From an uncultured Nitrososphaerales archaeon (GTDB taxonomy: Archaea > Thermoproteota > Nitrososphaeria > Nitrososphaerales > Nitrososphaeraceae): 64,000 nt of DNA. The stretch covers positions 288,001 through 352,000 of the forward strand of contig CAWJCY010000006.1 of the NCBI GenBank assembly GCA_963841565.1, read 5' to 3'. Below are positions 8,206 through 55,867 of this stretch, piece after piece. Positions within the stretch are counted from its first letter, which is position 1, and the number at the start of each line of letters is the position of its first letter. Made by a program: the position numbers and the translations under genes. Under the pieces are notes generated by a model. That model was not told where the DNA came from, ran no database searches, and saw only the letters and a list, made by a program, of their open reading frames with translations.

Positions 8206-9846
8206 ATGTTTGAACAGCTCAAAAGAGCGTTTTCTGACGCAGCGAGAAACCTATCGTCTCATAAGGAAATTTCTGAAAGAGATTTAAATAATCAATTATC
8301 TGAACTTGAAATTTCTCTTCTTGAAAGTGATGTTGCCCCAGAGGTTGTGGATGATCTTGTTGTAAGCCTGAGGACCGAATTACTTGGTTTAGAACTTGAA
8401 AAAGGACAAAGTGCAGAAGATGTGATCAGGCTCAAGCTCAGAATGCGGATAGCTGACATGTTTAACAAATCTGGAACTATGAATATTATCCAACTAATCA
8501 GATCTAAGAAGGAAGCAGGAAAAGGACCATTTGTTATACTTCTACTTGGAATTAATGGCACTGGTAAAACAACTACTATTGCAAAAATTGCTCATCTGTT
8601 TAAGAAAAATGGAATTTCAACTGTACTTGCAGCTGCGGATACACATAGAGCGGGTGCAATTGAGCAGCTATCGCAACACGGAGAAAATTTGTCTATAAAA
8701 GTCATTTCGCAGCGATATGGAGCTGATCCATCAGCTGTTGGCCGTGACGCTGTGGATTATGCCACTAAACACCGCGTAGATACGGTACTAATTGATACTG
8801 CCGGCAGAATGCAGACAGCAAAGAATCTGATGGATGAAATTAACAAGATAGTTAGGGTTGTAAAGCCAGATATCAAATTATTTATTGGTGATTCATTGGC
8901 AGGAAATGATACCATTAACCAAGCACGCGAGTTTTATGAGTATACCAAATTTGACGGTGCGATACTAACCAAGACGGACGCAGATGCCAAAGGAGGTTCG
9001 GCCATATCAATTGTACATACCACATCAAAGCCAATTGTGCTCTTAGGAATGGGACAAAGTTACGACGACATTACACCATTTAGCTCTGAGAAATTTCTAG
9101 ATTCGGTCTTTGGTAATTCCCCCATGGTTAGTGAAACGGAGCTTCCTTTTAACAATATCATTCAACAGGATGTGACCAAACAAGATATGAACAGGAGTGA
9201 AAAAGTAGAAACGGATATAGAATTACCGTATGAGGAGGTAACTTTGAGAACTGTAAGTAATGAAGATACTTCTGAGAGACTGAGTCAAAAAATAGAGGGA
9301 ACTCCTCCTGAATTTCCTCCAGATTCAGATGATCCTAGTTCTAATAAATATGAATCACTAGACAAAGTCGCCTCTGAAAAGCTTACTATCCAGCAGCAAC
9401 AACAGACAGATCAGCAAGAAGGACATTTTGAGCAAACACCACACAATTCAGAACAGCAGCAAGATCAAGTGCAACTGCAACAACAAGAACAAACACAGCA
9501 GCAAAGTTATCAAGAACAGCAACCCCAGGTTATTAATGTCACAGCTAGTAAGAAACCTGAGTCAATATCGGAGAAAAAAGAATCTGGTGGCTTTTTTAAA
9601 GGTCTGTTCGGCAAGAAAAATAAAAACAAGACACAAGATCCAGAAAAGGATTCTGCAATTGATAATCATACTATCAACAGCTCTCATGAAAAAAATCTCG
9701 CCTCAGCCGTGGAATCTGAAGGGAAGTCCAATACTAAGGATTTAGTCGAAAACAACGAGAAAAAAACCAGTAGTCAGAAGAAAGACGAAGAAGAAGAAGA
9801 AATAGTATATCTAACGGATGAAGACATTGAAGACCTCCTTAAATAA
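8206..9846 (+). CDS. ftsY: Signal recognition particle receptor FtsY with long low-complexity C-terminal extension
   Basis: GINGTGKTTT, DTHRAGA, DTAGR, TKTDADAKGG in the first ~300 aa; Q/E/K-rich tail follows. Confidence 0.95.
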   Translation: MFEQLKRAFSDAARNLSSHKEISERDLNNQLSELEISLLESDVAPEVVDDLVVSLRTELLGLELEKGQSAEDVIRLKLRMRIADMFNKSGTMNIIQLIRSKKEAGKGPFVILLLGINGTGKTTTIAKIAHLFKKNGISTVLAAADTHRAGAIEQLSQHGENLSIKVISQRYGADPSAVGRDAVDYATKHRVDTVLIDTAGRMQTAKNLMDEINKIVRVVKPDIKLFIGDSLAGNDTINQAREFYEYTKFDGAILTKTDADAKGGSAISIVHTTSKPIVLLGMGQSYDDITPFSSEKFLDSVFGNSPMVSETELPFNNIIQQDVTKQDMNRSEKVETDIELPYEEVTLRTVSNEDTSERLSQKIEGTPPEFPPDSDDPSSNKYESLDKVASEKLTIQQQQQTDQQEGHFEQTPHNSEQQQDQVQLQQQEQTQQQSYQEQQPQVINVTASKKPESISEKKESGGFFKGLFGKKNKNKTQDPEKDSAIDNHTINSSHEKNLASAVESEGKSNTKDLVENNEKKTSSQKKDEEEEEIVYLTDEDIEDLLK

Positions 9847-10769
9847 GAAAAATTTTTTGAGTCTTAATGACCTAGGTAAAGAGGAAATCCTATCAATCTT
9901 AGAGTTATCAAAGGAACTCAAGAGGGACTTGAAAAATGGAAAATCGTCCCAATTATTGAAGGGAAGAACGCTTGCCATGATATTTCAGAAACCCTCTACT
10001 AGGACCAGATTAAGTTTTGAAACTGGAATCGTACAACTAGGTGGCACCGCTATCTATCTGAGTTCAAACGACCTTCAGCTAGCTAGAGGAGAATCAATCG
10101 AAGATACAGCTCGAACTCTTTCGCTCTACGTTGACTTGATTATGGCACGTGTATATGCGCATTCGGATATTGAGAAACTTGCTGCATACTCTTCTGTTCC
10201 CGTCATAAACGGGCTTTCAGATACTTTTCATCCTTGCCAAATTCTGGCCGATCTCCTCACGATTCAAGAGCAGAAAAATACATTCAATGGATTGAAAGTT
10301 GCATGGATAGGAGAGGGCAATAATGTTTGTAATGATCTCAGTACTTGGTTGTTCGAAGATAGGCATGAATCTTTCGATTGCTTGTCCTCCTGGTTTTGAA
10401 CCGAATGAATTTGTTCTAGATGTAGCAAGACAAGAGGCTTCCAAAAGTTCTACAGAAATATCGATCACAGATGATCCTTTAAAGGCCGTTCAAAACGCAG
10501 ATGTATTGGCAACAGACACATTCATATCCATTGGAAAGGATGAGGAAAGACAGCGAAGAGAAGAGATATTCTTACCTAAGTACCAAGTAAATTCTAATCT
10601 GTTGAGATCTGCGAAGCAAGATTGCATTTTTATGCACTGTCTTCCAGCCTCCAGAGGTCGGGAAGTCACTTCCGAAGTAATTGACGGTAAGGCATCTGTA
10701 GTGTGGGACCAAGCCGAAAATAGGCTACACGTACAGAAGGCTTTAATGTGTATGCTACCTTTGAGGTAA
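9818..10769 (+). CDS. argF: Ornithine carbamoyltransferase, interrupted by one +1 insertion near 10340
   Basis: PSTRTR and HPCQ in ORF 9818-10399; FMHCLP and DQAENRLH in ORF 10323-10769; span is 3n+1. Confidence 0.93.
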
Positions 10770-17454: not shown

Positions 17455-18885
17455 ATGTACGCATTTGTTAGAGATGCAGGAGGATGTCTGTGGTTGACTG
17501 AAGAATTTTGGCGACGGATAGAAGAATATCGACAATTGGGGTTCGACCCTTTGAGGTGGATTGCTACTGGTTCTAATGAAGTTGATTATTGGAAAATTGA
17601 ACAAATGGTAAATGAAATGAAACGTAGCTCTATAAAGTTGGATACAAATTGGTTCGATGCATTCCATTATGCCGACGGAAAAACGCCTGACCTTACAAGA
17701 AGGGTCTTTTCCCTACGTGATCCTGCAGTTGAAAACGAGGTTGACCTTAAACACGCCATTGCGATGTTCCGGGTACATAAGGAGATAGAGAATGATTCTC
17801 CGTTATTTACTGATATTCTAAATAATTTCTTCAGAAATTTCAGATGTAAAGTTTCCGTCAATAAGAGCACATTTGCAGTTACAGAACATAGAGATGCACA
17901 ATTTGCATTACTTGATTACATTGGTTTGCACAGAGGAGATAAGGTAGGTTTTACCGCCGCTGATAATGCCACTGCGCATGTGATTGATCCTACACTAGAA
18001 CCCGATTCCGAGCTCCATACAGACATTCCCATGACACGATGCATCGACCATTTGAATCTGCTTGGATGCACATCAGGATTTGACCTCTATCCCATATATG
18101 ATTCTCCTCAAGAATCTTCACTAGATATCATCGGAAAAAATCTTGACGCATTCACCTCCAGATATAATCTCAAGATGGATGATTACAGCTCACTTAAAAT
18201 AGGAAGGCTCTTCTTTGGAGCAACTGGGATTGCTAACACCTACAAAGAACTACCTACAAATTATGACCAGATCGAAGAGACCATGCAGATTATTATCACT
18301 AATCCGCTCGGTTCATTGATGGCATTAAGTCTTTACACGCTAGCACAAATTGATGAGAAGATTATGTTTACTTTAGAAAACAAGGGCATCAACAATCAAG
18401 ATCTTGTATCTGCAAAAGATGAATGCATGAAGAATCTCTGCGAACCACATTTTTCACTTGGAAAAATAGTCTCAAAGTATTGTCCCGGGTTTGGGACTCC
18501 GCTTCAGAAGAACGAGAATTTGATAGCCGTTCATCCTTTAGCTAGTGACGGTATACTTGGCTTATGGAAGCTTGCCCGAATTAGTAATTGTCATCTTGTA
18601 GTCAATGACCTTCCAATGATGTTTGAGGAAATTGCAAGACTAGCTTCAAGTGAGGCCCTTGTAATGAACCCAACTGCTGCACTAAATGGATGTCACACCA
18701 TAGTCGCAACCAATGATATTTCAAGTTTAATGCTAGATGAATTGCGAAAACATAACTTTAGAGCAACGGTGATAGGTTTTATTGCCAAAAAGGGAGAGAA
18801 GAATGTTACCTTTGGAGATAACATTAAGGATCACTTTGCTGCGAAAATTGGATTATCAATACTCAATAAAATAGCAGGTAAGTGA
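17455..18885 (+). CDS. SelD-like (PurM/AIR-synthase fold) protein, degenerate active site
   Basis: N-terminal YRQLGFDPLRWIATGSNEVD and HVIDPT/PIYDSP/LFFGAT segments resemble archaeal SelD-related proteins (from memory). Confidence 0.6.
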   Translation: MYAFVRDAGGCLWLTEEFWRRIEEYRQLGFDPLRWIATGSNEVDYWKIEQMVNEMKRSSIKLDTNWFDAFHYADGKTPDLTRRVFSLRDPAVENEVDLKHAIAMFRVHKEIENDSPLFTDILNNFFRNFRCKVSVNKSTFAVTEHRDAQFALLDYIGLHRGDKVGFTAADNATAHVIDPTLEPDSELHTDIPMTRCIDHLNLLGCTSGFDLYPIYDSPQESSLDIIGKNLDAFTSRYNLKMDDYSSLKIGRLFFGATGIANTYKELPTNYDQIEETMQIIITNPLGSLMALSLYTLAQIDEKIMFTLENKGINNQDLVSAKDECMKNLCEPHFSLGKIVSKYCPGFGTPLQKNENLIAVHPLASDGILGLWKLARISNCHLVVNDLPMMFEEIARLASSEALVMNPTAALNGCHTIVATNDISSLMLDELRKHNFRATVIGFIAKKGEKNVTFGDNIKDHFAAKIGLSILNKIAGK

Positions 18886-18965: not shown

Positions 18966-20072
18966 CTAATCTGAGAACTTGTTTGTCTGATTCTCATCAT
19001 TATCGTTCTTGTCGATTGAAACTTCTCCATCTGGCCTGCTTCTTCCTTCTTTTACCAGAACATATTTGATTCTAACAAATGAAAATAGTATTGCTAATCC
19101 GAGGATTCCAAAGATAACAGCTATGGAAGTAGGGATAGGTATTTCGTATAACTCGGATATTAACATCTTGATGCCTATGAAAAGCAGTATTGCAGCCAGT
19201 CCTGGTTTCAGATAGTAAAATTTGTCTATCATACCCGCGAGAAGAAAGTACAGGCTCCTCAAGCCCAGTATGGCAAATATATTAGAGGTTATCACTAGAA
19301 ATGAGTCAGTTGTAATTGCAAGAATTGCAGGAATAGAATCAAGTGCAAACACCAAATCTGTCATCTCTATGATTACTAGTGCAATTAGCATTGGGGTTGC
19401 ATACATTATACCATCTGAGGCCCGGTGTAGAAACTTGTCTGAGGTATTACCTTTTAATTCGATAGGAATGAACTTTTTCAAAATTCTTACTGCTATGTTC
19501 TTTTCGATTTCTATGTTCTTTTCCTTCTTTGCTACTAGCATTCGTATCGCGGTGAATACCAATAGACCACCAAAGAGGTATATCGTCCAATGAAATGACT
19601 CAAGCAGAGAAATCCCTGCGAGAATGAGGGCTATCCTCAGCCCAATTGCACTTAGTATTCCAAGCATCAATACCTTGTGCTGATAGATGTATGGGATACC
19701 AAGTGATGAAAATATTAGCACAAATACAAACATGTTATCTACGCTTAGTGATTTTTCAATAGCATATCCTGTCAGGAACAAAAGTGATTTGTCATACCCC
19801 ATACTTACAAAAATTAGGCCTGCAAATACGCCCGCAAGCGAAATCCAGATTATAGTCCAACGCAATGCATGTTCGAATGTTTTCTTGCTTCTTTCCTGGT
19901 TGCTTAGAACCTGTACAGTATTGTTGTCTGAAGAGTCCTTATTCTTAGATATCCTCCTCCTTATACTCTCAATCATCCCTAAGTCTATCGCTAAAGCTAT
20001 CCCTACGAATAACCCAAAAGCAATCCACATCAAAGATTGATAGCTACTATCAGCGAATACAAGAGGTTCCAT
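18966..20072 (-). CDS. TerC/Alx family membrane protein
   Basis: EKSLSVDNMFVF, DLVFALDSIPA, SNIFAILGLRSLYF motifs. Confidence 0.94.
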   Translation of the reverse strand: MEPLVFADSSYQSLMWIAFGLFVGIALAIDLGMIESIRRRISKNKDSSDNNTVQVLSNQERSKKTFEHALRWTIIWISLAGVFAGLIFVSMGYDKSLLFLTGYAIEKSLSVDNMFVFVLIFSSLGIPYIYQHKVLMLGILSAIGLRIALILAGISLLESFHWTIYLFGGLLVFTAIRMLVAKKEKNIEIEKNIAVRILKKFIPIELKGNTSDKFLHRASDGIMYATPMLIALVIIEMTDLVFALDSIPAILAITTDSFLVITSNIFAILGLRSLYFLLAGMIDKFYYLKPGLAAILLFIGIKMLISELYEIPIPTSIAVIFGILGLAILFSFVRIKYVLVKEGRSRPDGEVSIDKNDNDENQTNKFSD

Positions 20073-20377: not shown

Positions 20378-20761
20378 TCAAGTCATCATGTAGTTGCTAA
20401 TCTTCATAGGTTCATTGAATTTTATTCGCTGTTTTGGAAAATCGTCAACAATTACGTCAAAGCTCATTTCTCTCAAAGTTTCTGGTACGCCGATCATCAC
20501 TTGGTCGCTTGTAAGAATACCTTGAGCAGCATTTTCGATTTGGTCTTGAGATTTGTACTCCCTCATCTGTTCAATCACATATGCACAAAAAATGGCAAGC
20601 GATTCATTGGCATTGATCCTTAAGTCCATTTCAATTTTCTTTTTGATCGATACTATGACATTGAAAAATATCGATTCCTCTTCCTTGTCAGGAAATTGAA
20701 ATACCCTTATGAATGGAGGAGTATCGATTTCCCCTCGAACCATGACTTTAATATCTATCAT
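20378..20761 (-). CDS. Stand-alone urease gamma-subunit-like protein with a non-UreA N-terminus
   Basis: LRINANESLAIFCAYVIEQMREYKS...ILTSDQVMIGVPETLREM...FNEPM parallels UreA LKLNYPEAVALI...EGARDGKS...VLTREQVMEGVPEM...VHNPI; start overlaps the upstream stop (ATGA). Confidence 0.75.
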   Translation of the reverse strand: MIDIKVMVRGEIDTPPFIRVFQFPDKEEESIFFNVIVSIKKKIEMDLRINANESLAIFCAYVIEQMREYKSQDQIENAAQGILTSDQVMIGVPETLREMSFDVIVDDFPKQRIKFNEPMKISNYMMT

Positions 20762-21882
20762 CGATTGTTTCTTTTTGGGGGCGCTGCTTTAGGACCGTTC
20801 CCAAAATCATATGTATGTCCCTTCCCACGATAGAATTTTGGCCTTACAGGATTTCCTTCCATTTCCCCTTTCTTTGTGAGTGAAAGCCCTGCCAAAAGTT
20901 CGACAATTAGTCGATTTGCCAAGCCTGAAGTGATTCCTCCGTTGTAAGAGTTGACGTCGCTTACATCATAATTGGGTGCTACTTCGACCAAATCGAATGC
21001 AAACTTGTCCGGATCAAAAGAGGTGGACAATAATCGCATCAATCTCATACCCTCTCTTGAAGTCAGCCCATTGGGCTCAGGCTCGCCAGTACCTGGCGCG
21101 TAGGCGGGGTCAAACGTATCGATATCCCAACTTATGTATACCGCATCAACATTATCATTTGCCCTATCGGCCGCTTCCTTAGCGATCGGGTCAATTCCCA
21201 TTTCTTCTACGTCCAGCATTGTAAACCACTGGAAATCCTGATCAGCCATCCATTTATAGAGATCAGGTCCAGGCCAATATCCTCTTGGGCCAATTAGGGT
21301 ATAATTTTTGCCCTTTAGACAACCTAACTCCATAATCCTTCTTATATGCGCCCCATGATCATATTTGAATCCGCAAAGTCCTTGAGGAGCGCAATCCGCG
21401 TGGGTGTCGATATGGATCATACCAATGTTTTTGTACTTCTTGGCAAACGCTCTCACGTTAGCGAATGTAATTGAGTGATCTCCACCTAACATTACAGGGA
21501 TCCCATCGATATCGAGAACCTCCTTGACCTTATCTGTCATTCTTCTGTGTGATTCAATGACGTCGCCAGGAGACACTACAACGTCACCATAGTCTACAGT
21601 TTTAAATACACCAAAAGGGTCCACTCCTGTTTCAATGTTGAAATGTTCATAAGGGGGAGATGGCACAGTTGAAGCTGCTCGGATTGCGCGTGGCCCATAT
21701 CTCGCACCAGGACGTATGGTTGTTCCAAAATCAAATGGTTCTCCTATTATAGCTACATCTGGTTTTATCTTTTCTAATTCCTGACGGGACCTGAGCCAAG
21801 GCAACTTCAGAAAAGTTGGTATACCAACAAAAATCGGCTCATCATTACCTTTGTACGAATCCCCATAGAATTCCATTCCCAT
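20758..21882 (-). CDS. Ureohydrolase (arginase/agmatinase family), substrate unknown
   Basis: RPGARYGP, GGDHS, DTHAD, SWDIDTFDPAYAPGTG, VEVAP motifs; binuclear metal ligands intact. Confidence 0.93.
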   Translation of the reverse strand: MGMEFYGDSYKGNDEPIFVGIPTFLKLPWLRSRQELEKIKPDVAIIGEPFDFGTTIRPGARYGPRAIRAASTVPSPPYEHFNIETGVDPFGVFKTVDYGDVVVSPGDVIESHRRMTDKVKEVLDIDGIPVMLGGDHSITFANVRAFAKKYKNIGMIHIDTHADCAPQGLCGFKYDHGAHIRRIMELGCLKGKNYTLIGPRGYWPGPDLYKWMADQDFQWFTMLDVEEMGIDPIAKEAADRANDNVDAVYISWDIDTFDPAYAPGTGEPEPNGLTSREGMRLMRLLSTSFDPDKFAFDLVEVAPNYDVSDVNSYNGGITSGLANRLIVELLAGLSLTKKGEMEGNPVRPKFYRGKGHTYDFGNGPKAAPPKRNNR

Positions 21883-22028
21883 CTTCTAATCGCTAAATAT
21901 TAGGACACGTACAATGTTTTTAAGCATTTCTAAGTAGTTTACGAATCTCTTTAACTCGCTGATCCGACTACATAAAGTCATATGTTACTGGCTTTGGGAT
22001 CAGATACTTACTGATAATGAGAATTAAT

Positions 22029-22061
22029 GGTATGGTTAGGGTATGGTCAGGGTATGGTCAG
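22029..22061. repeat. Three tandem copies of 11-bp GGTATGGT(T/C)AG
   Basis: Read directly: ggtatggttag ggtatggtcag ggtatggtcag. Confidence 0.85.
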
Positions 22062-22331
22062 TGTCAGTGTATACTAATGGTCTCGTTAAGTGATCTACAT
22101 TTTATACATTGAATTCATTGATATTAAGCTAAACCAACCATGTAGAATGTGATACAAAGACCACAATCCTCTAGTAGTTAGCTATCCATAAAATGAAGAT
22201 ATGAAGAGATTTGTCGAATGATATACTAACGTAATCTACGCATTGTATAATACTATACTGATGACCATGCATTTTAAAATGAATGATAGATCAATACTTT
22301 TTTATAGTTACTCCCCTTATAGGAAAATGCG

Positions 22332-22586
22332 ATGAATGCGGTTAGAAATGAAAGTGATGTTCAAGCTCGAGCAGTAGGAGCGATTGAGACACTGTATGGA
22401 AAAGGCATTTCGGATTTAAAGCTAAGATCACTATTCTCTCTTCCTAATGAGCAAAAAAGAGAGGAATGGGATGCACAGACAACTTTTATGTTAAATAACC
22501 TTCAATATGTGGTCGATCTTACGATTAGGGAACAAGATGGTATCATAACTAATGCTAGGCTGATAGACGTAATGAAACCTCTTTAA
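22332..22586 (+). CDS. Small hypothetical protein
   Basis: 84 aa ORF preceded by a TTTATA box about 25-30 bp upstream. Confidence 0.65.
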   Translation: MNAVRNESDVQARAVGAIETLYGKGISDLKLRSLFSLPNEQKREEWDAQTTFMLNNLQYVVDLTIREQDGIITNARLIDVMKPL

Positions 22587-22840
22587 CCTACTGGCATTTC
22601 GTTCTCAAGGATTCATTTTCGTAGGCTCCTAGCCAAGAAAGTCATCGCTGATGACTGATACGAATCCCATTTTAATGGCCAAAAATTTTTTTGGGTCGCC
22701 ACAAGTCTAGAAATGTTTGTTTTAAGAATGCATAAATTCGTAATATACATTATTCAATCGTACTTTATTATACCCTAATATTGGTAGTATACATATACTG
22801 AGGAAGTATTTTTATATATAATGTCTATAACCATAACACT

Positions 22841-23201
22841 ATGAAAGAATTGGATGTCTTTATCCGTTCAGAGCATCGTTCGAAAGTGACAGATATACTC
22901 CAAAAGAATAGAGCAGGCATCAGTTTTTTCGAGGTCCTTGGTACAGGGAGTACACCAAGTGCAGCTCCGGAAGTAGTACATTCATACAGAACTGGTAGAA
23001 CTACTGTCCCTGAATTCGTAACAAGGCTTTTGGTTATGACAGTCGTACCTGATTCTTCTGCAAAAAAAAATAGTCGACGAGCTCGTAAATAGTTTCGGTA
23101 AAACATCAGAGCCTTATAGAGTGCTCTTTGTGAAGGATGTCACTGAAGCTTATCAATTTGGTACGAAGGTAGTCGGGGAGGAAATCCTGACACCTAAATG
23201 A
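22841..23201 (+). CDS. P-II family nitrogen regulatory protein, +1 frameshift in A9 run (23062-23070)
   Basis: MKELDVFIR...GISFFEVLGTG; removing one A gives AKKIVDELVNSFGKTSEPYRVLFVKDVTEAYQFGTKVVGEEILTPK*, a P-II-like C-terminus. Confidence 0.8.
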
Positions 23202-23299
23202 CCCGAACCGTTGCAAAATCTAACCTCCTGTATAGGCGTTACTTTGTCGCTTCCACAACCTATGAACTATGAGCAGTTGTGTGGCTAATGGTTTAATGG

Positions 23300-23351
23300 G
23301 AATTCACTGATTCCACTACTCTAGACACTCAGAATTCACTGGTTCCACTAT
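23300..23351. repeat. Two-copy 20-bp direct repeat GAATTCACTG(A/G)TTCCACTA(C/T), 32-bp period
   Basis: Copies at 23300-23319 and 23332-23351. Confidence 0.75.
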
Positions 23352-23430
23352 TTGACAGGATTAATTGAAAAACCGGTCCGGTTCGCATAAATGTACGAGA
23401 TTAGAATGATGCAAACCGCCGAATCTCAAA

Positions 23431-25135
23431 TCAATAATAGTGATGCATAGGCCTTTGTTGTTTTCCTAGTCGATCGAAATAGTGATCATGCTTCTTGTCT
23501 CCTCCTGGATGTGAATGTTCTACACCATCAGCGTGAGTATGAGTCTGCATTTTTGGTTTAGCCATTAAAACATCATCTACGCGCAATAACATGCACGTTA
23601 CCTCCACAGCTGTTTTAAGGACTTGTTCTTTTACTATCGATGGTTCTATTACTGACGAAATGATATTCTCCACCTTTCTGCTTTTTGAATCAATTCCATA
23701 CCACCTAATCTTGCTGTTAGCAGGCAAGTGTTTAGATCTCAATTGTACTATCGTGTTGACGGTATCCATTCCGGCATTTCTAGCAAGCGTGGTTGGTATT
23801 TCCTCTAATGCTTCAGCAAATTTCTGAAGTACGAGCTGAACACGGCCTTTAATTAGTCTAGATCTATCTCTAATGATGGCTGCGACCTTCATTTCAGTAG
23901 CACCAGCTCCTCCAACAATTCGAGGTGATAGAATATAGTCTCTTAGAACAGCAAATCCGTCCAATGCTGAACGGTGGTACTCATCAAGTACTCTTTTTGA
24001 ATTTGCCCTCAACAAGAGAGTCACTGATTTAGGATTTTTACATTCATCGATAAAGACCATCTTGTCATCACCAACCAATTTTTCATACACTTTCCCTGCA
24101 TACCCCAAGTTATTAGATGGTATTGGGCCATTCAAATCTTTAACAACCTTTGCACCTGTTGATCTCTCCAACCACAACATATCATTTTCTTTAACTCTAT
24201 GAAGGGTGAGAATATCTGCTCTTGATAATCGCTGTTGAACTATTTTGTTTATTCCCTTCTGAGAAATCACGATATTCGCACCAGACTCTATAATATTCTG
24301 TACCTTTATTTCGAGTAGTTCGTATTCAGATTTGTAGTATTTCTCTAGCTGACCACATGATGATATATTCAATTCAGAATTAGTCCGAGTCCTGCTCCTA
24401 TCGAGTTCTTCGTTAGTTAAAAGTATCTTGGCGTTTTCAATCTGTTTGACCATGGTTGAAGCTGCAAAGGTCTTGTCAATCACCGTGCCTCTTATTAGGG
24501 TAGTATCAGAAGGGTTACCCAGTTTTTCTTCAATTTTGATATCGTCTATATCAATAGTCTTGTTTCTCAAATCTGAGATGCTCCAAACGGCCTCAACTAC
24601 TAGATCAGCGAGCACTATTATTTTCTCTAGCAACTATGCCTGAGATAGACCTAGTTTGAAGACAAGTCTCTGCCAACTTACTCATTACTTCTCTGTGTAA
24701 ACTGGCTGAGGATACTGAAATTTGACCGAGAGTTTGAAGTGAGATTTCTAAGCCTTTGAGATACCCATCAATTATAACTGATGGAGCGATTCCATAGAAC
24801 AACAGTTCTTGTGCCTTCGACAATAATTCTCCCGACAAGATGACAACAGATGTAGTACCGTCTCCTACCTCATTGTCTACTGCATTGGCCGCCTCTATCA
24901 GAATTTTTGCTGCAGGATGTTCAACATCAAGTTTTCGCAATATCGCTGAACCATCCTTTGTCACCGTGATCTCTCCCATAATATCGATATACACTTTTTC
25001 CAATCCACAAGGACCAAATGAATTTTTAATCAGGTTTGAGATCAATGTAGCTGCCAAGAGATTATACTGACGACTCTTGCCCTCTTGACTTCTGCCAAAA
25101 CCATCACCGAATAGCTGCTCCTTGCGTGGATCCAT
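23431..25135 (-). CDS. Divergent thermosome (group II chaperonin) subunit with His-rich C-terminus; one +1 insertion near 24615
   Basis: SFGPCG, TKDG, EHPAAK, VGDGTT, GGAGATE, VIEPSIVK; joined product about 567 aa; TATA-like box and GGAGG upstream of ATG 25135. Confidence 0.9.
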
Positions 25136-25496
25136 GTATCCTCCACGTGTCTGATTTGAACTATATAAGGCTTGTCTGATGAACGAATGAGAACGCCATC
25201 ACAGATAAATTGATTGGGATGCTCACTCAATAGATAATCGAAAATTTTGAATTTCAGTCACTTACTATTCAGATTATGATAAATTAAAACATAGAAATCC
25301 AATAATTGTTTTTTATTGACTGATTACATGTAGTATACGAATGTTCGTTCACTCTCATATCCGTAATTTACATTATTTGGCCTAAAATTTATATAATTTC
25401 ACGTTTAGAATTCAATGTGCAAATCGGTAGCATTGTTTCTACTAGTCTGACTAGTAGTAACGTACCTTTTGTAAAAATAGCTCTGGAGGTATCCTT

Positions 25497-27011
25497 TTGG
25501 TAGACGGATATGCGATTGGGGTCATCGCATTTTTAGCGCTTTCTGTTATTGTTGGGACTCTAACCTCGAAGCTTGTAAAGAAAAGCAGCAAAAGGTTTAT
25601 GATCGCTGGCAAAAGTCTGCCGCTCTTCTTCGTGGGGACTATGCTCGCTGCTCAATCTATCGATGGTAATTCTTCACTTGGAAACGTATCCCTTGTTTAT
25701 CAATTTGGATTCTGGTCAGGAGCCGCAATTCCAATTGGACTTGCTGCGTGCCTCATCTTAACGGCAATATTCTATGCAAAAAAACTTAATAAAATGTCAA
25801 TGCTTACTTTGCCCGATTTTTACTTTAGGAGGTTTGGAAATGCAAGTGAAGGCATTTCCGGAATCCTTATGATGATAAGCTTCGTAGTATTAGTAGCAGG
25901 CAATTTTGCGGCAACTGGATACATCTTGTCTGTCGTTTTACATATTGACTTCATATGGGCAATGCTGATTGGAGCGATAATCGTGTTGATTTATACCTAC
26001 GCAGGGGGTCTATTCTCCTCAGCTTATACAGACATTTTTCAAATATATTTAGCAATAGCTGCATTTTGGGCTGCATTTCTATTCTTCGCAGGAGGCTTTG
26101 CGGGCGTCAGCTTTGATACTATTCTTGGCAGCGCTCCACCTGGGTACTTGGATTTATCTGGACTAACAGATATGGGCAATGGTGCCCTTGTTAATTGGGC
26201 TGGAATCATGGCTTTGGCATTAGGAGACATTGTAGCATTGGATTTCATGGAAAGGGTGTTCGCAGCTAGAGACGGTAAAACCGCAAGAAGAGGAGCCTTC
26301 ATGGGAGCAGGACTAACAATATTAACTATCGTTCCCACAAGCATGATGGGAATTGTTGCATTATACTTTTTGCCAGATTTGACTGATCCCTATACTGCTT
26401 ATCCTGATCTAGCGATTAACCATGTTCCATTCGTTATTGGAGTAGCCCTACTCATGGGAGTCCTTGGTGCCTCGATGTCAACTGCAAATGGCGGTTTGCT
26501 CGCCATTTCCAGTGTCATGTCAAGAAACATTGTTCAAAGAACTATCTTGAAAAGGATACTGAAACGCCCAGGATTGGGAGATAAGAAACTACTGATGGTA
26601 ACACGTATTTTCACTATCCCAATGATGATAGCTGCGTTTGTACTTGCATACCTGATCCCGCAGCCCGGTGTTTATCTTATCCTAGCATTTGATATCGTAT
26701 TTGCAGGTGCTTGGGCTCCACTAACATTTGGTCTATTCTGGAAGAAGGCCAATACTCCTGCAACATTGGCTTCACTCATTATTGGATCATCCTTGAGGCT
26801 ATTGCTCTTCTTCGTCATTCCTGTCGAATTGGCTGGTCTTGATACATTAATACCTCCAGTAATATCTGTTATTATCTTTGTTGTAGTAGCTTTAGCGACC
26901 CAAAAGAAATATCCTGGCAGGTATGGAGTCGTTGACTATGTTCCACCAGAAGAAGATGTATTAAATGGAGAAGACTTGAAGGGATTCGTCGCACCAAATG
27001 CAGGGAAATGA
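25497..27011 (+). CDS. Sodium:solute symporter (SSS) family protein
   Basis: FMIAGKSLP, LTLPDFYFRRFG, YTYAGG...AYTDIFQ, ASMST, GLFWKKAN; about 13 TM helices. Confidence 0.93.
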   Translation: MVDGYAIGVIAFLALSVIVGTLTSKLVKKSSKRFMIAGKSLPLFFVGTMLAAQSIDGNSSLGNVSLVYQFGFWSGAAIPIGLAACLILTAIFYAKKLNKMSMLTLPDFYFRRFGNASEGISGILMMISFVVLVAGNFAATGYILSVVLHIDFIWAMLIGAIIVLIYTYAGGLFSSAYTDIFQIYLAIAAFWAAFLFFAGGFAGVSFDTILGSAPPGYLDLSGLTDMGNGALVNWAGIMALALGDIVALDFMERVFAARDGKTARRGAFMGAGLTILTIVPTSMMGIVALYFLPDLTDPYTAYPDLAINHVPFVIGVALLMGVLGASMSTANGGLLAISSVMSRNIVQRTILKRILKRPGLGDKKLLMVTRIFTIPMMIAAFVLAYLIPQPGVYLILAFDIVFAGAWAPLTFGLFWKKANTPATLASLIIGSSLRLLLFFVIPVELAGLDTLIPPVISVIIFVVVALATQKKYPGRYGVVDYVPPEEDVLNGEDLKGFVAPNAGK

Positions 27012-54104: not shown

Positions 54105-55070
54105 GTGGCAATTTATTATTGTATTATCCTTCTAACCGTTTTCTTTATTATTGCACCGGGCTGTTTGGTAATACACGCCTCTGGGAGAGGCGTGGCCCCG
54201 GAACACAATATTTCTAAAACTCTGCCCATTTCCAGTTCCAATTTATCTGATCCGATAACCCAACAAGTACCAAAAATAACTGTGGTTGCCTCATTCTTCC
54301 CCATTTATGAATTTGCGAAGCAAGTAGGAGGGGATAGGATAAATATTATAGCTCTCATTCCAGCCGGTGTAGAGCCACACGACTATGAACCCACGATCCA
54401 GCAGCTACAACAGGCAGAAAATGCAGATGTAGTATTCTTTAATGGTCTGGGATTTGAGAATTCCTGGATAGACAGGGTCACCAATGATAATTTGGTTGAT
54501 ACAAGTGCTCTCTCTAATTTGTCTCAAGGCAGCCAAATAAGAAATCCACATATTTGGCTGGATCCCGTCTTTGCAAAGGCCCAAGTACAGCAAATCGAAA
54601 AGGCGTTAATAGAAATTGATCCTAATAACAAACTATATTACCAGAAGAATGCGTTGAATTTTACAGATAAGCTAGATTCATTGGATTCCGAAATAAGAAC
54701 TGCACTTCAGCCCTGTGATAAGAAGGATTTTATTGCATTTCATGACGCTTTTGGCTACTTTGCCAAAAGGTACGGTCTAAGTCAACATAGTGTCCAAGGA
54801 GTATCACCAGAAGGAGAAGTTCTACCTCAGCGAATTGAGGAAACTATAAGATTGGCCAATGATCTTGGGCTAAAAGTTATTTATGCTGAGGAATTGGTAG
54901 ACCCTAGATTTGCTGAAGTGATCGCACAGGAGATTCCTAATGGCAAGGTACTCGTATTGAGCCCTTTGGAAGGAATTGAGAAAGACGAAGAGGACTCAGG
55001 AATAGGGTATCTTGACAAGATGGAACAAAATATTTCTAATTTGAAAGTAGGATTGGAATGCTTGACATAA
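54105..55070 (+). CDS. Zn/Mn ABC transporter substrate-binding protein (ZnuA-like)
   Basis: EPHDYEP, NPHIWLDP, HDAFGY. Confidence 0.94.
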   Translation: MAIYYCIILLTVFFIIAPGCLVIHASGRGVAPEHNISKTLPISSSNLSDPITQQVPKITVVASFFPIYEFAKQVGGDRINIIALIPAGVEPHDYEPTIQQLQQAENADVVFFNGLGFENSWIDRVTNDNLVDTSALSNLSQGSQIRNPHIWLDPVFAKAQVQQIEKALIEIDPNNKLYYQKNALNFTDKLDSLDSEIRTALQPCDKKDFIAFHDAFGYFAKRYGLSQHSVQGVSPEGEVLPQRIEETIRLANDLGLKVIYAEELVDPRFAEVIAQEIPNGKVLVLSPLEGIEKDEEDSGIGYLDKMEQNISNLKVGLECLT

Positions 55071-55867
55071 CTTCAGCTAATCCAATAGTGGAAATAGACC
55101 ACTTATATTATTGGTACGATTCTTCATTTCTTACATTAGATGATATTTCCTTTAGAATGGAACAAGCAGACCTGCTGGGGATAATAGGTCCCAATGGTGC
55201 AGGAAAAACCACTCTTTTTAATTGCATTCTGGGAATTCTGACAGACTATAGGGGTACAGTTAAACTTTTTGGAAAGGAGGTTATGAGGAATAGAAAAGCA
55301 TTGTTAAGCAAAGTAGGGTACGTACCTCAACATGCATCAATTGAACAAAGCTTTCCTGCGACCATAGAGGAGATTATTTCATTCGGATTGCTAGGATCCA
55401 TCGAGAAGTACAGTCGAAGTTATGCAAAGGACCAAGTGCTTAAAGCAATGCAGATAGTTGGATTAACTGATAAGAAGAATAAAAGATTCAATGAGCTATC
55501 CGGCGGACAACAACAAAGAGTCCTAATCGCTAAGGCCATGGTACATAATCCTAAGTTACTAATATTAGATGAGCCCACGAGCGGTATAGACCAAGAAACA
55601 CAGGATCGATTTTATGAACTAATTCGGAAGCTTAATGCAGAAGAAAAAATATCCATCATATTGTCTTCACACGATCTAGATGCTGTAAGTAAGCTTGCCA
55701 ATAAGGTCGCGTGCATCAACAGAAAAATGCATTTTCATGGAGATGCGAAAGATTTCTTCGGTGATGAAAACATGCTTAAGACTTATTATGAATCTGCGAT
55801 GCAGACGCATTTAAGGCTCCATCAATTCAACGCCAAATCCAATCCTCAGCAGCTTCCATCCTCCTAA
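55058..55867 (+). CDS. Zn/Mn ABC transporter ATPase (ZnuC-like)
   Basis: GPNGAGKT, GYVPQ, LSGGQQQR, LDEPT. Confidence 0.95.
   Translation: MLDITSANPIVEIDHLYYWYDSSFLTLDDISFRMEQADLLGIIGPNGAGKTTLFNCILGILTDYRGTVKLFGKEVMRNRKALLSKVGYVPQHASIEQSFPATIEEIISFGLLGSIEKYSRSYAKDQVLKAMQIVGLTDKKNKRFNELSGGQQQRVLIAKAMVHNPKLLILDEPTSGIDQETQDRFYELIRKLNAEEKISIILSSHDLDAVSKLANKVACINRKMHFHGDAKDFFGDENMLKTYYESAMQTHLRLHQFNAKSNPQQLPSS

Follow-up and report, generated by a model that had tools for sequence, protein, structure and literature searches.

A stretch of 64,000 nucleotides from an uncultured Nitrososphaerales archaeon (assembly GCA_963841565.1, contig CAWJCY010000006.1, positions 288,001 to 352,000; hereafter the window) encodes (i) an arginase-fold ureohydrolase (UH), (ii) a urease-gamma-like protein (UreAL), (iii) a group II chaperonin paralog with a His-rich tail (THS), (iv) an SSS-family transporter (SSS), and (v) a conserved 84-residue protein (orf84), which form an ancient module of ammonia-oxidizing archaea (AOA) that has been kept together in three families. 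The module is nested inside urease-positive genomes, and UH is under purifying selection that is unusually strong for an accessory enzyme. The explanation to which we incline, with modest confidence, is that UH releases urea from a guanidino compound for urease, in which case the module would be an ancient accessory branch of the AOA urease system.

AOA drive nitrification in soils and oceans and have few known substrates: ammonia, urea, and, in one case, cyanate. If the proposed function is correct, it adds a new substrate class to archaeal nitrification, as guanidine did for comammox Nitrospira. The module reaches roughly one in four of the class genomes sampled and ~40–55% of the sampled AOA families. 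It also offers new, testable biochemistry: a group II chaperonin whose conserved tail is putatively metal-binding, and a paralog of urease gamma that has been recruited beside a different hydrolase. Its wide occurrence in AOA, the strong constraint on it, and its accessibility to direct tests make it of high interest.

Conservation and Genome Distribution

The module lies at window positions 20378–27011, where genes were assigned from a six-frame list of open reading frames (ORFs) combined with Pfam and NCBIfam profile searches. All five genes named in the first-pass annotation (ureohydrolase, UreA-like protein, P-II, thermosome, and SSS importer) were found where it had placed them, with corrections to THS and P-II. 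Four of them (UH, UreAL, THS, and SSS) belong to the module; orf84 was absent from its list.

Synteny was assessed in 60 loci fetched around UreAL in the same family, 10 more fetched around UH, and 20 from two further families of the order, likewise centered on UH. The 60 UreAL-centered loci contain UreAL (60), UH (59), THS (56), SSS (51), orf84 (48), and ureC (22), and nearly all of the misses fall on contigs of a few kb. The 20 loci of the other two families contain UH and orf84 in every case, SSS in 19, UreAL in 16, THS in 14, and ureC in 9. UH, UreAL, THS, and SSS thus occur together in three AOA families, which bears out the co-location that the first-pass annotation had anticipated among related genomes.

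Co-occurrence was followed in 151 genomes of the family and 251 of the class; two of the 151, G035 and G077, are unpublished, and no conclusion rests on either. UH is present in 86 of the family genomes, always at an identity of at least 90%. Full-length UreAL is found in 70 of the 151, all of them UH-positive, and the orf84 profile matches 83, of which 79 also have UH; the 11 genomes discordant for orf84 are fragmentary or carry the gene at a contig end. The expected genome-level association of the genes therefore holds. In the class set, UH occurs in 61 genomes, including 16 of 30 in family f1, 42 of 145 in f2, and 2 of 3 in f5, and in none of 72 genomes from eleven other class families.

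Connection to Urease

The dependence of the module on urease is visible at the level of whole genomes. Among the 251 class genomes, ureC is present in 100, 40 of which lack UH, whereas 60 of the 61 UH genomes have ureC; the contig of the single exception stops inside ureB. Confinement to urease-positive genomes is what a urea-producing feeder pathway predicts, and it supports the earlier idea of such a feeder.

A full ureABC set adjoins the module in 22 of the 60 family loci, with orf84 directly after ureC and THS divergent from ureA, and loci L022 and L026 retain ureC remnants in that same position. Because of these remnants, a second ureABC was probably part of an older arrangement that has been lost in the source genus. 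The complete genome G107 has two ureC genes, one with a chaperonin paralog of the kind described below for contig C12 and one beside the UH cluster, and duplicate ureABC sets have been reported in published genomes (PMC5797428, PMC10753782; excerpts). The second ureABC beside the module brings its own ureEFGD in L041, L043, L047, L048, and L053. The ureE, ureF, and ureD genes of those loci are 32–37% identical, and ureG ~70% identical, to the accessory genes of the source genome, so some relatives carry two complete urease systems.

Within the window, profile searches gave zero matches to urease alpha, UreG/HypB-type GTPases, or HypA. This absence, which the first-pass annotation had reported, holds for the window and not for the genome. 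In the whole assembly (2.05 Mb, 13 contigs, 88% complete), ureC, canonical ureA, and ureG occur only on contig C12, where the urease cluster is complete: it comprises ureABC (with ureC split), a thermosome paralog that has no His tail, ureEFGD, and a transporter of the UT type. That ureG is the sole CobW-family GTPase of the assembly, and HypA was not found in the assembly at this completeness. A locus working without urease is refuted by the C12 cluster. Fragments of a DUR3-like SSS gene, apparently broken into several frames, lie at C12 ~54876–55678 beside the UT transporter. Close to the same cluster, an ORF at C12 56446–57375 (−) is similar, by eye, to a ParB-like gene with ParB_N and HTH_ParB domains near the UH/urease locus in family f5 (L158, 4563–5540, +).

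The Ureohydrolase UH

UH matches PF00491 with 266.1 bits (cut-off 22) over profile positions 2–279 of 280, which places it in the ureohydrolase superfamily. The metal motifs GGDHS, DxHxD, and SxDxD are readable in its sequence, and in an alignment of 57 sequences the binuclear-metal ligands H136, D159, D163, and D255 are invariant while H161 and D253 are conserved in at least 90%. The agmatinase SpeB models TIGR01230 and NF002564 give scores below their cut-offs (156.6 versus 174.3 and 203.6 versus 302, respectively). Among solved structures, UH is closest not to SpeB but to hydrolases of guanidino acids and guanidine: guanidinobutyrase (181.7 bits) and two nickel-dependent guanidine hydrolases (168.2 and 166.7 bits), along with proclavaminate amidinohydrolase and guanidinopropionase.

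The four residues named for the comammox guanidinase of N. inopinata are Thr105, His222, Trp313, and Glu344 (PMC11410670, excerpt). In alignments of UH to 9fek and 7esr, from which a chain-to-native residue offset of +2 was deduced, T55, H176, and the Glu of an LVEV motif match three of these. At the Trp313 position, UH has GTGEPEP where guanidinases have GTGWPEP, and the guanidino-acid enzymes have Thr. The Glu is invariant in 55 of 55 and a further 20 of 20 AOA orthologs. Because of it, UH matches neither the canonical guanidinases nor the guanidino-acid hydrolases known so far, in agreement with the lack of guanidine genes in AOA reported in the excerpt of PMC11410670. The analogy to the guanidine hydrolase GdmH, which the first-pass annotation had drawn, fails at this point: UH is without the Trp that marks guanidine hydrolases. 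Nor do HypA/HypB-like nickel helpers, which accompany guanidine hydrolases, lie alongside UH in this 88%-complete assembly.

UH is conserved to a degree that sets it apart from its neighbors, with identities of 76–100% across the order and 90–99% across genera, compared with between-genus identities of 32–85% for UreAL and 47–90% for THS. Its dN/dS is 0.007–0.010, and synonymous sites are saturated between genera. Recent horizontal transfer was considered as a source of the ≥90% identity and rejected because of this saturation; genes flanking UH are only 30–60% identical. AOA UH proteins also share a conserved basic C-terminal extension of ~45 residues (…PVRPKFYRGKGHTYDFGNGPKA..PKR; listed under the window 21760–21882 region). 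The extension is missing in haloarchaeal relatives, whose tails are acidic and which are without UreAL, THS, and orf84. UH probably represents a distinct AOA/haloarchaeal clade of arginase-fold ureohydrolases, and the labels “agmatinase/SpeB” and “urease subunit gamma” carried by AOA genes of this kind are probably mis-annotations.

The His-Tailed Thermosome and the Metal Link

The two THS fragments match the Cpn60_TCP1 profile at positions 1–134 and 141–490, and the N-terminal fragment contains the GDGTT motif; THS is thus a group II chaperonin. It is not a housekeeping thermosome: scored separately against that equivalog (cut-off 450), the C-terminal and N-terminal fragments reach 330.5 and 153.8 bits, and identity to the two housekeeping thermosomes of the genome is 38–42%. 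The urease loci of Nitrososphaerales and Nitrosocaldus are known to encode an Hsp60 homolog, which has been proposed as a urease stabilizer (PMC5797428, excerpt). Equating THS with this protein was rejected, as the published homolog corresponds to the C12 paralog, to which THS is only 24–28% identical.

The His-rich tail of THS (THTHxDGTxHSHxGGxKxHDHYFDxLGKQQRPxHHYY) is real and is conserved in 50 of 52 orthologous loci, with 8–10 His within the last 40 residues; a variant of it is present in the second AOA family. In the source assembly, THS is split by one inserted base near 24610–24630 relative to four same-genus loci, outside a homopolymer. It forms a single open frame in 50 of the 52 orthologous loci; of the 7 other same-genus loci with a THS gene, 6 have it intact. 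The ureC gene on C12 and a carbamoyltransferase gene in the window are each frame-split as well, which makes indel errors in the assembly likely; because essential genes of the assembly carry frameshifts too, the THS split is indistinguishable from an assembly error.

Family f5 presents a different arrangement. Its UH is ~60 residues longer and ends in a fused His-rich stretch; next on that strand come a UreA-like gene (114 residues, PF00547 72 bits), a NicO-like gene, and ureABCEFGD. The NicO-like membrane protein has a His-rich loop and scores 27.9 bits against a cut-off of 27.7. His-tailed THS was not found in the two f5 genomes (97–99% complete) by a search that matched its positive control and did not match two UH-negative genomes. 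A His-rich element thus accompanies UH, as a fused tail in f5 and as part of its chaperonin in the other families. The metal link suspected from the THS tail of the source genome is strengthened by this pattern. Dedicated nickel-delivery genes are already established for nickel-dependent ureohydrolases (PMC10927577, excerpt), and by analogy the metal of UH is likely nickel, which THS would deliver.

UreAL, orf84, and the Intergenic Regions

The UH stop codon overlaps the UreAL start (ATGA), so that UreAL is translationally coupled to UH. UreAL is not a canonical UreA: it scores 40.3 against the NCBIfam UreA equivalog (cut-off 123) and is encoded after UH rather than before ureB. Its AlphaFold model (pLDDT 93.5) comprises a urease gamma domain with an extra N-terminal β-hairpin, and the top 17 fold matches in the PDB are all urease gamma or fused gamma chains, with a target TM-score of ~0.8 for free gamma chains. 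Urease gamma has a structural role at the trimer interface of the enzyme and is not known to handle nickel. UreAL is accordingly not taken as a maturase, and the suggestion that it replaces HypA/B-type nickel helpers has no basis in a protein of gamma fold that is lost in at least six UH-keeping genomes; a scaffold or adaptor role is possible. A complex prediction for UH and UreAL gave a score of 0.00 against a mark of 0.32 and was used as evidence neither way.

The small protein orf84 belongs to no Pfam or NCBIfam family, and Pfam searches with 27 orthologs gave only scattered weak matches. Its model (pLDDT 87.9) has one helix packed on a four-stranded sheet in a cystatin/PepSY-like arrangement. 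The fold search returned no PDB match at E ≤ 0.001, only weak cystatin, monellin, and NTF2-like rows, and “PepSY” names in the Atlas stood at 0.88–0.89, under the lead threshold of 0.9. The 450-bp intergenic region between UH and orf84 contains three copies of the 11-bp repeat GGTATGGTCAG, a candidate that may be a regulator binding site. A second, ~19-bp direct repeat, GAATTCACTGRTTCCACTA, was noted by eye in two copies at window ~23300–23355, in the stretch that separates the 3′ end of the P-II pseudogene from that of THS.

The SSS Transporter and the P-II Gene

SSS is a full-length family member (PF00474 98.2 bits, cut-off 22.8, profile positions 1–406 of 406) whose PutP-like scores are far below cut-off. 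At E ≤ 1e-5 its only match in the genome is itself. It lies beside UH in 79 of the 90 AOA loci. In a soil AOA clade, an SSS gene clustered with “agmatinase (SpeB)” has been described, and the enzyme is conserved and expressed (PMC11131427, excerpt).

P-II fares differently. The window copy is frame-broken and scores 18.5 bits against the PF00543 cut-off of 25. An additional A in a nine-A run near 23062–23070 moves the remainder into another frame, up to ~23198. The intact same-genus ortholog (L015) is 119 residues long with 38.9 bits, and it is the only intact copy in nine same-genus loci, the others being broken in different ways. P-II adjoins UH in one other genus (L123–L125) and lies 2–3 kb off in a few more; the genome has eight P-II genes elsewhere. 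P-II in the source genus is thus a probable decaying pseudogene and bystander, and its assignment to the module, linked as it is in some genera only, is not retained.

Proposed Function and Alternative Explanations

In the proposed mechanism, SSS would import a guanidino compound, and UH, as a binuclear-metal ureohydrolase, would convert it to urea and an amine, as its family chemistry and its dependence on urease suggest. Urease encoded elsewhere in the genome would then release ammonia from urea for energy and nitrogen. THS would be dedicated to the folding and metal loading of UH, and also of the second urease in genomes that have one, with nickel as the presumed metal; UreAL and orf84 would be auxiliary partners, UreAL being dispensable in some lineages. 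Observed are the identities of the genes, their shared order and joint occurrence across genomes, their restriction to genomes with urease, and the extreme purifying selection; we infer the substrate, the metal, and the physical contacts between module proteins. The first-pass view of a locus for guanidino import and conversion thus survives as a conserved, urease-dependent UH module with a probable metal helper, and is given up as regards P-II membership and UreAL as a nickel helper. A bolder version, which we consider improbable, casts THS as a metallochaperonin whose 8–16 His-rich, chamber-lining tails load nickel into UH, taking the place of the HypA/HypB-type helpers of GdmH and metformin hydrolase, with the guanidino compound as a new nitrification substrate that supplies energy and nitrogen to urease-positive soil and marine AOA and with UreAL docking UH to urease so that urea passes directly. 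Candidate substrates in that version are guanidine, methylguanidine, agmatine, creatine, or guanidinoacetate.

A number of observations count against a guanidino-to-urea function for the module. The sequence of UH does not reveal a substrate, the Glu at the Trp/Thr position fits no characterized specificity, the metal ligands cannot separate nickel from manganese, and the highest NCBIfam scores, though below cut-off, belong to agmatinase models, such that an ordinary Mn-agmatinase is still a conceivable identity. A published screen did not find guanidine-degradation genes in AOA, as reported in the excerpt of PMC11410670, and the AOA SSS protein is assumed to be a urea transporter in the literature (PMC11131427, excerpt). 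Six UH-positive genomes have no UreAL ORF between UH and THS, and UreAL is consequently not an obligatory subunit. The THS frameshift, if real, would leave the helper broken in the source organism. Moreover, the co-occurrence statistics overstate the case because related genomes are not independent samples, and the Fisher value for UH and ureC serves as description only.

The strongest competitor, rather unlikely in our estimate, holds that UH is the SpeB-type agmatinase of the cell and makes putrescine out of endogenous agmatine, that SSS imports urea, that THS is a urease chaperone, and that the genes cluster through urea, a by-product that is recycled. The best NCBIfam models (203.6 and 156.6 bits) and the published name of the SSS-clustered gene speak for it, the pocket Glu would be well matched to a cationic substrate tail, as in agmatine, and the different Hsp60 homolog proposed as a urease stabilizer (PMC5797428, excerpt) offers a parallel for THS. 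Yet UH stays under both agmatinase cut-offs, two other agmatinase-like genes with similar scores exist in the genome, and the distribution is not that of a polyamine enzyme, which would be expected to be near-universal: UH was not found in 65 of the 151 family genomes, including the complete single-contig genomes G001 and G014, nor in 190 of the 251 class genomes. The haloarchaeal UH–SSS pair persists with ureC within ±10 kb in only 8 of 51 loci, and a comparison of the window SSS with the DUR3-like remnant next to the urease cluster on C12 gave no match at E ≤ 1e-5.

Two further explanations would remove UH, or the source genome, from the center of the account. It is quite improbable that THS, UreAL, and orf84 are assembly, stabilization, or regulation factors of urease, especially of the second UreABC, with UH a mere neighbor. 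This would accommodate the many genera with THS divergent to ureA2 and orf84 right after ureC2, the gamma fold of UreAL, and the restriction of the whole module to urease-positive genomes. Against it, the three genes stay beside UH where the adjacent ureABC has been lost, including in the source genus; wherever UreAL occurs it follows UH immediately on the same strand, and it is without UH in 0 of 70 genomes; 40 of the 100 urease-positive genomes are without UH, and the UH-negative genomes of the family are nearly all without orf84 and UreAL; and the His-rich element of f5 is fused to UH and not to a urease subunit. More improbable still is a decaying, non-functional module in the source genome, in which the THS and P-II frameshifts are real lesions. 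Over ~16 genes and 25 kb compared with a same-genus locus, only THS and P-II change frame, the THS insertion is outside a homopolymer, and P-II is broken independently in 8 of 9 same-genus loci; however, UH, UreAL, orf84, and SSS are intact and strongly constrained, the assembly also splits ureC and the carbamoyltransferase gene, and THS is intact in nearly all other same-genus loci that hold it.

Relation to Known Systems

By analogy, the UH module may be of the same sort as the ureohydrolase that feeds urease in comammox guanidine use. GdmH (Synechocystis Sll1077) and the comammox Nitrospira guanidinase share the arginase fold with UH (167–168 bits) and the proposed logic in which a guanidino compound yields urea and then, through urease, ammonia in a nitrifier. 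They differ from UH in having Trp313 instead of Glu, in their HypA/HypB-like nickel helpers GhaA/GhaB, where the UH module has a His-tailed group II chaperonin as the candidate helper, and in an APC-type rather than SSS-type transporter. GbuA and GpuA of Pseudomonas aeruginosa, of which GbuA is the best-scoring solved relative, belong to the same urea-releasing family and have the metal ligands in common; they carry Thr instead of Glu, are ~35–40% identical to UH, and have neither the basic C-terminal extension of ~45 residues nor partners akin to UreAL, the chaperonin, and orf84. Agmatinase SpeB, as which UH is currently labeled in databases and in the literature, is of the same superfamily, from which UH departs in its sub-cut-off scores, its patchy distribution nested in urease-positive genomes, and the presence of two agmatinase-like paralogs. 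AOA agmatinase has been treated generically (PMC6790972, PMC8573960; excerpts).

The nickel-dependent metformin hydrolase MfmAB/MetCaCb combines a non-catalytic partner subunit with nickel-delivery and transporter genes (PMC10927577, excerpt); its partner has a ureohydrolase fold, whereas the small protein adjacent to UH has a urease gamma fold, and the score to UH is 116–122 bits. The urease-locus Hsp60 homolog of Abby et al. 2018 resembles THS as a chaperonin paralog tied to a urease locus. It lacks the His tail and is reported absent from Nitrosopumilales in the excerpt of PMC5797428, while THS is present in the second AOA family of the sample.

A chaperonin-system protein with a nickel-binding, His-rich tail is known in HspA, the His-rich GroES of Helicobacter pylori, which is a group I co-chaperonin, in contrast to the group II chaperonin THS. 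In the literature searched, neither the module as a unit nor its UreA-like partner or His-tailed thermosome was found described, although the genes may be mentioned in gene-level tables of PMC11131427, PMC5797428, and PMC11410670. The earlier remark that no such system had been described holds only in part, since the SSS/“agmatinase (SpeB)” pairing (PMC11131427, excerpt) and a different urease-linked Hsp60 (PMC5797428, excerpt) are in print.

Relatives Outside AOA

The nearest non-AOA relatives of UH, at 53–56% identity, are from haloarchaea and one Aquificaceae. Among 1.84 billion cluster representatives there was no full-length relative above 54% identity, the top one (54%) being a haloarchaeal “agmatinase family protein”. 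For the haloarchaeal UH clade no literature was found, as judged from listings. A sister-clade set of 51 loci (haloarchaea, one Aquificaceae, and one distant match), fetched with ±10 kb, contains an SSS homolog, 35–46% identical to the window SSS, in 43 cases, ureC in 8, and UreAL, orf84, or His-tailed thermosome in none. In the Aquificaceae locus, UH has ureA on one side and an ABC transporter on the other, with ureG and ureD coming next. The pairing of UH with a transporter and its tie to urease are thus older and wider than AOA. In L077 (8715–9764, +) and similar haloarchaeal loci, a protein combining AbrB/MazE-type and PhoU domains is encoded between SSS and the UH homolog and is likely a regulator of the pair.

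Feature Inventory and Neighboring Genes

Table 1. Coordinates of the module genes and associated features in the window.
Feature	Position	Strand	Profile match or remark
UreAL, urease-gamma-like, 127 aa	20378–20761	−	PF00547 39.9 bits
UH, arginase-fold ureohydrolase, 374 aa	20758–21882	−	PF00491 266.1 bits
11-bp tandem repeat GGTATGGTCAG ×3	22029–22061	none	intergenic, upstream of UH
orf84, 84-aa small protein	22332–22586	+	no Pfam/NCBIfam family; conserved
P-II-like, frameshifted, probable pseudogene	22841–23198 (83-aa open frame 22841–23092)	+	PF00543 18.5 bits
THS, group II chaperonin paralog with His-rich tail, split	23431–25135 (ORFs 24605–25135, 23431–24633)	−	Cpn60_TCP1
SSS-family transporter, 504 aa	25497–27011	+	PF00474 98.2 bits

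Several other genes of the window were noted. The frame-split aspartate/ornithine carbamoyltransferase gene lies at 9818–10769 (+) as two overlapping ORFs, one for the N domain (9818–10399) and one for the C domain (10323–10769). A SelD-related “HyperS” putative sulfur-metabolism protein (246.9 bits versus a cut-off of 250) is encoded at 17455–18885 (+), and a TerC/Alx-family metal-homeostasis membrane protein at 18966–20072 (−), at the flank of the module. The TerC and SelD-related genes adjoin the module only in the source genus.

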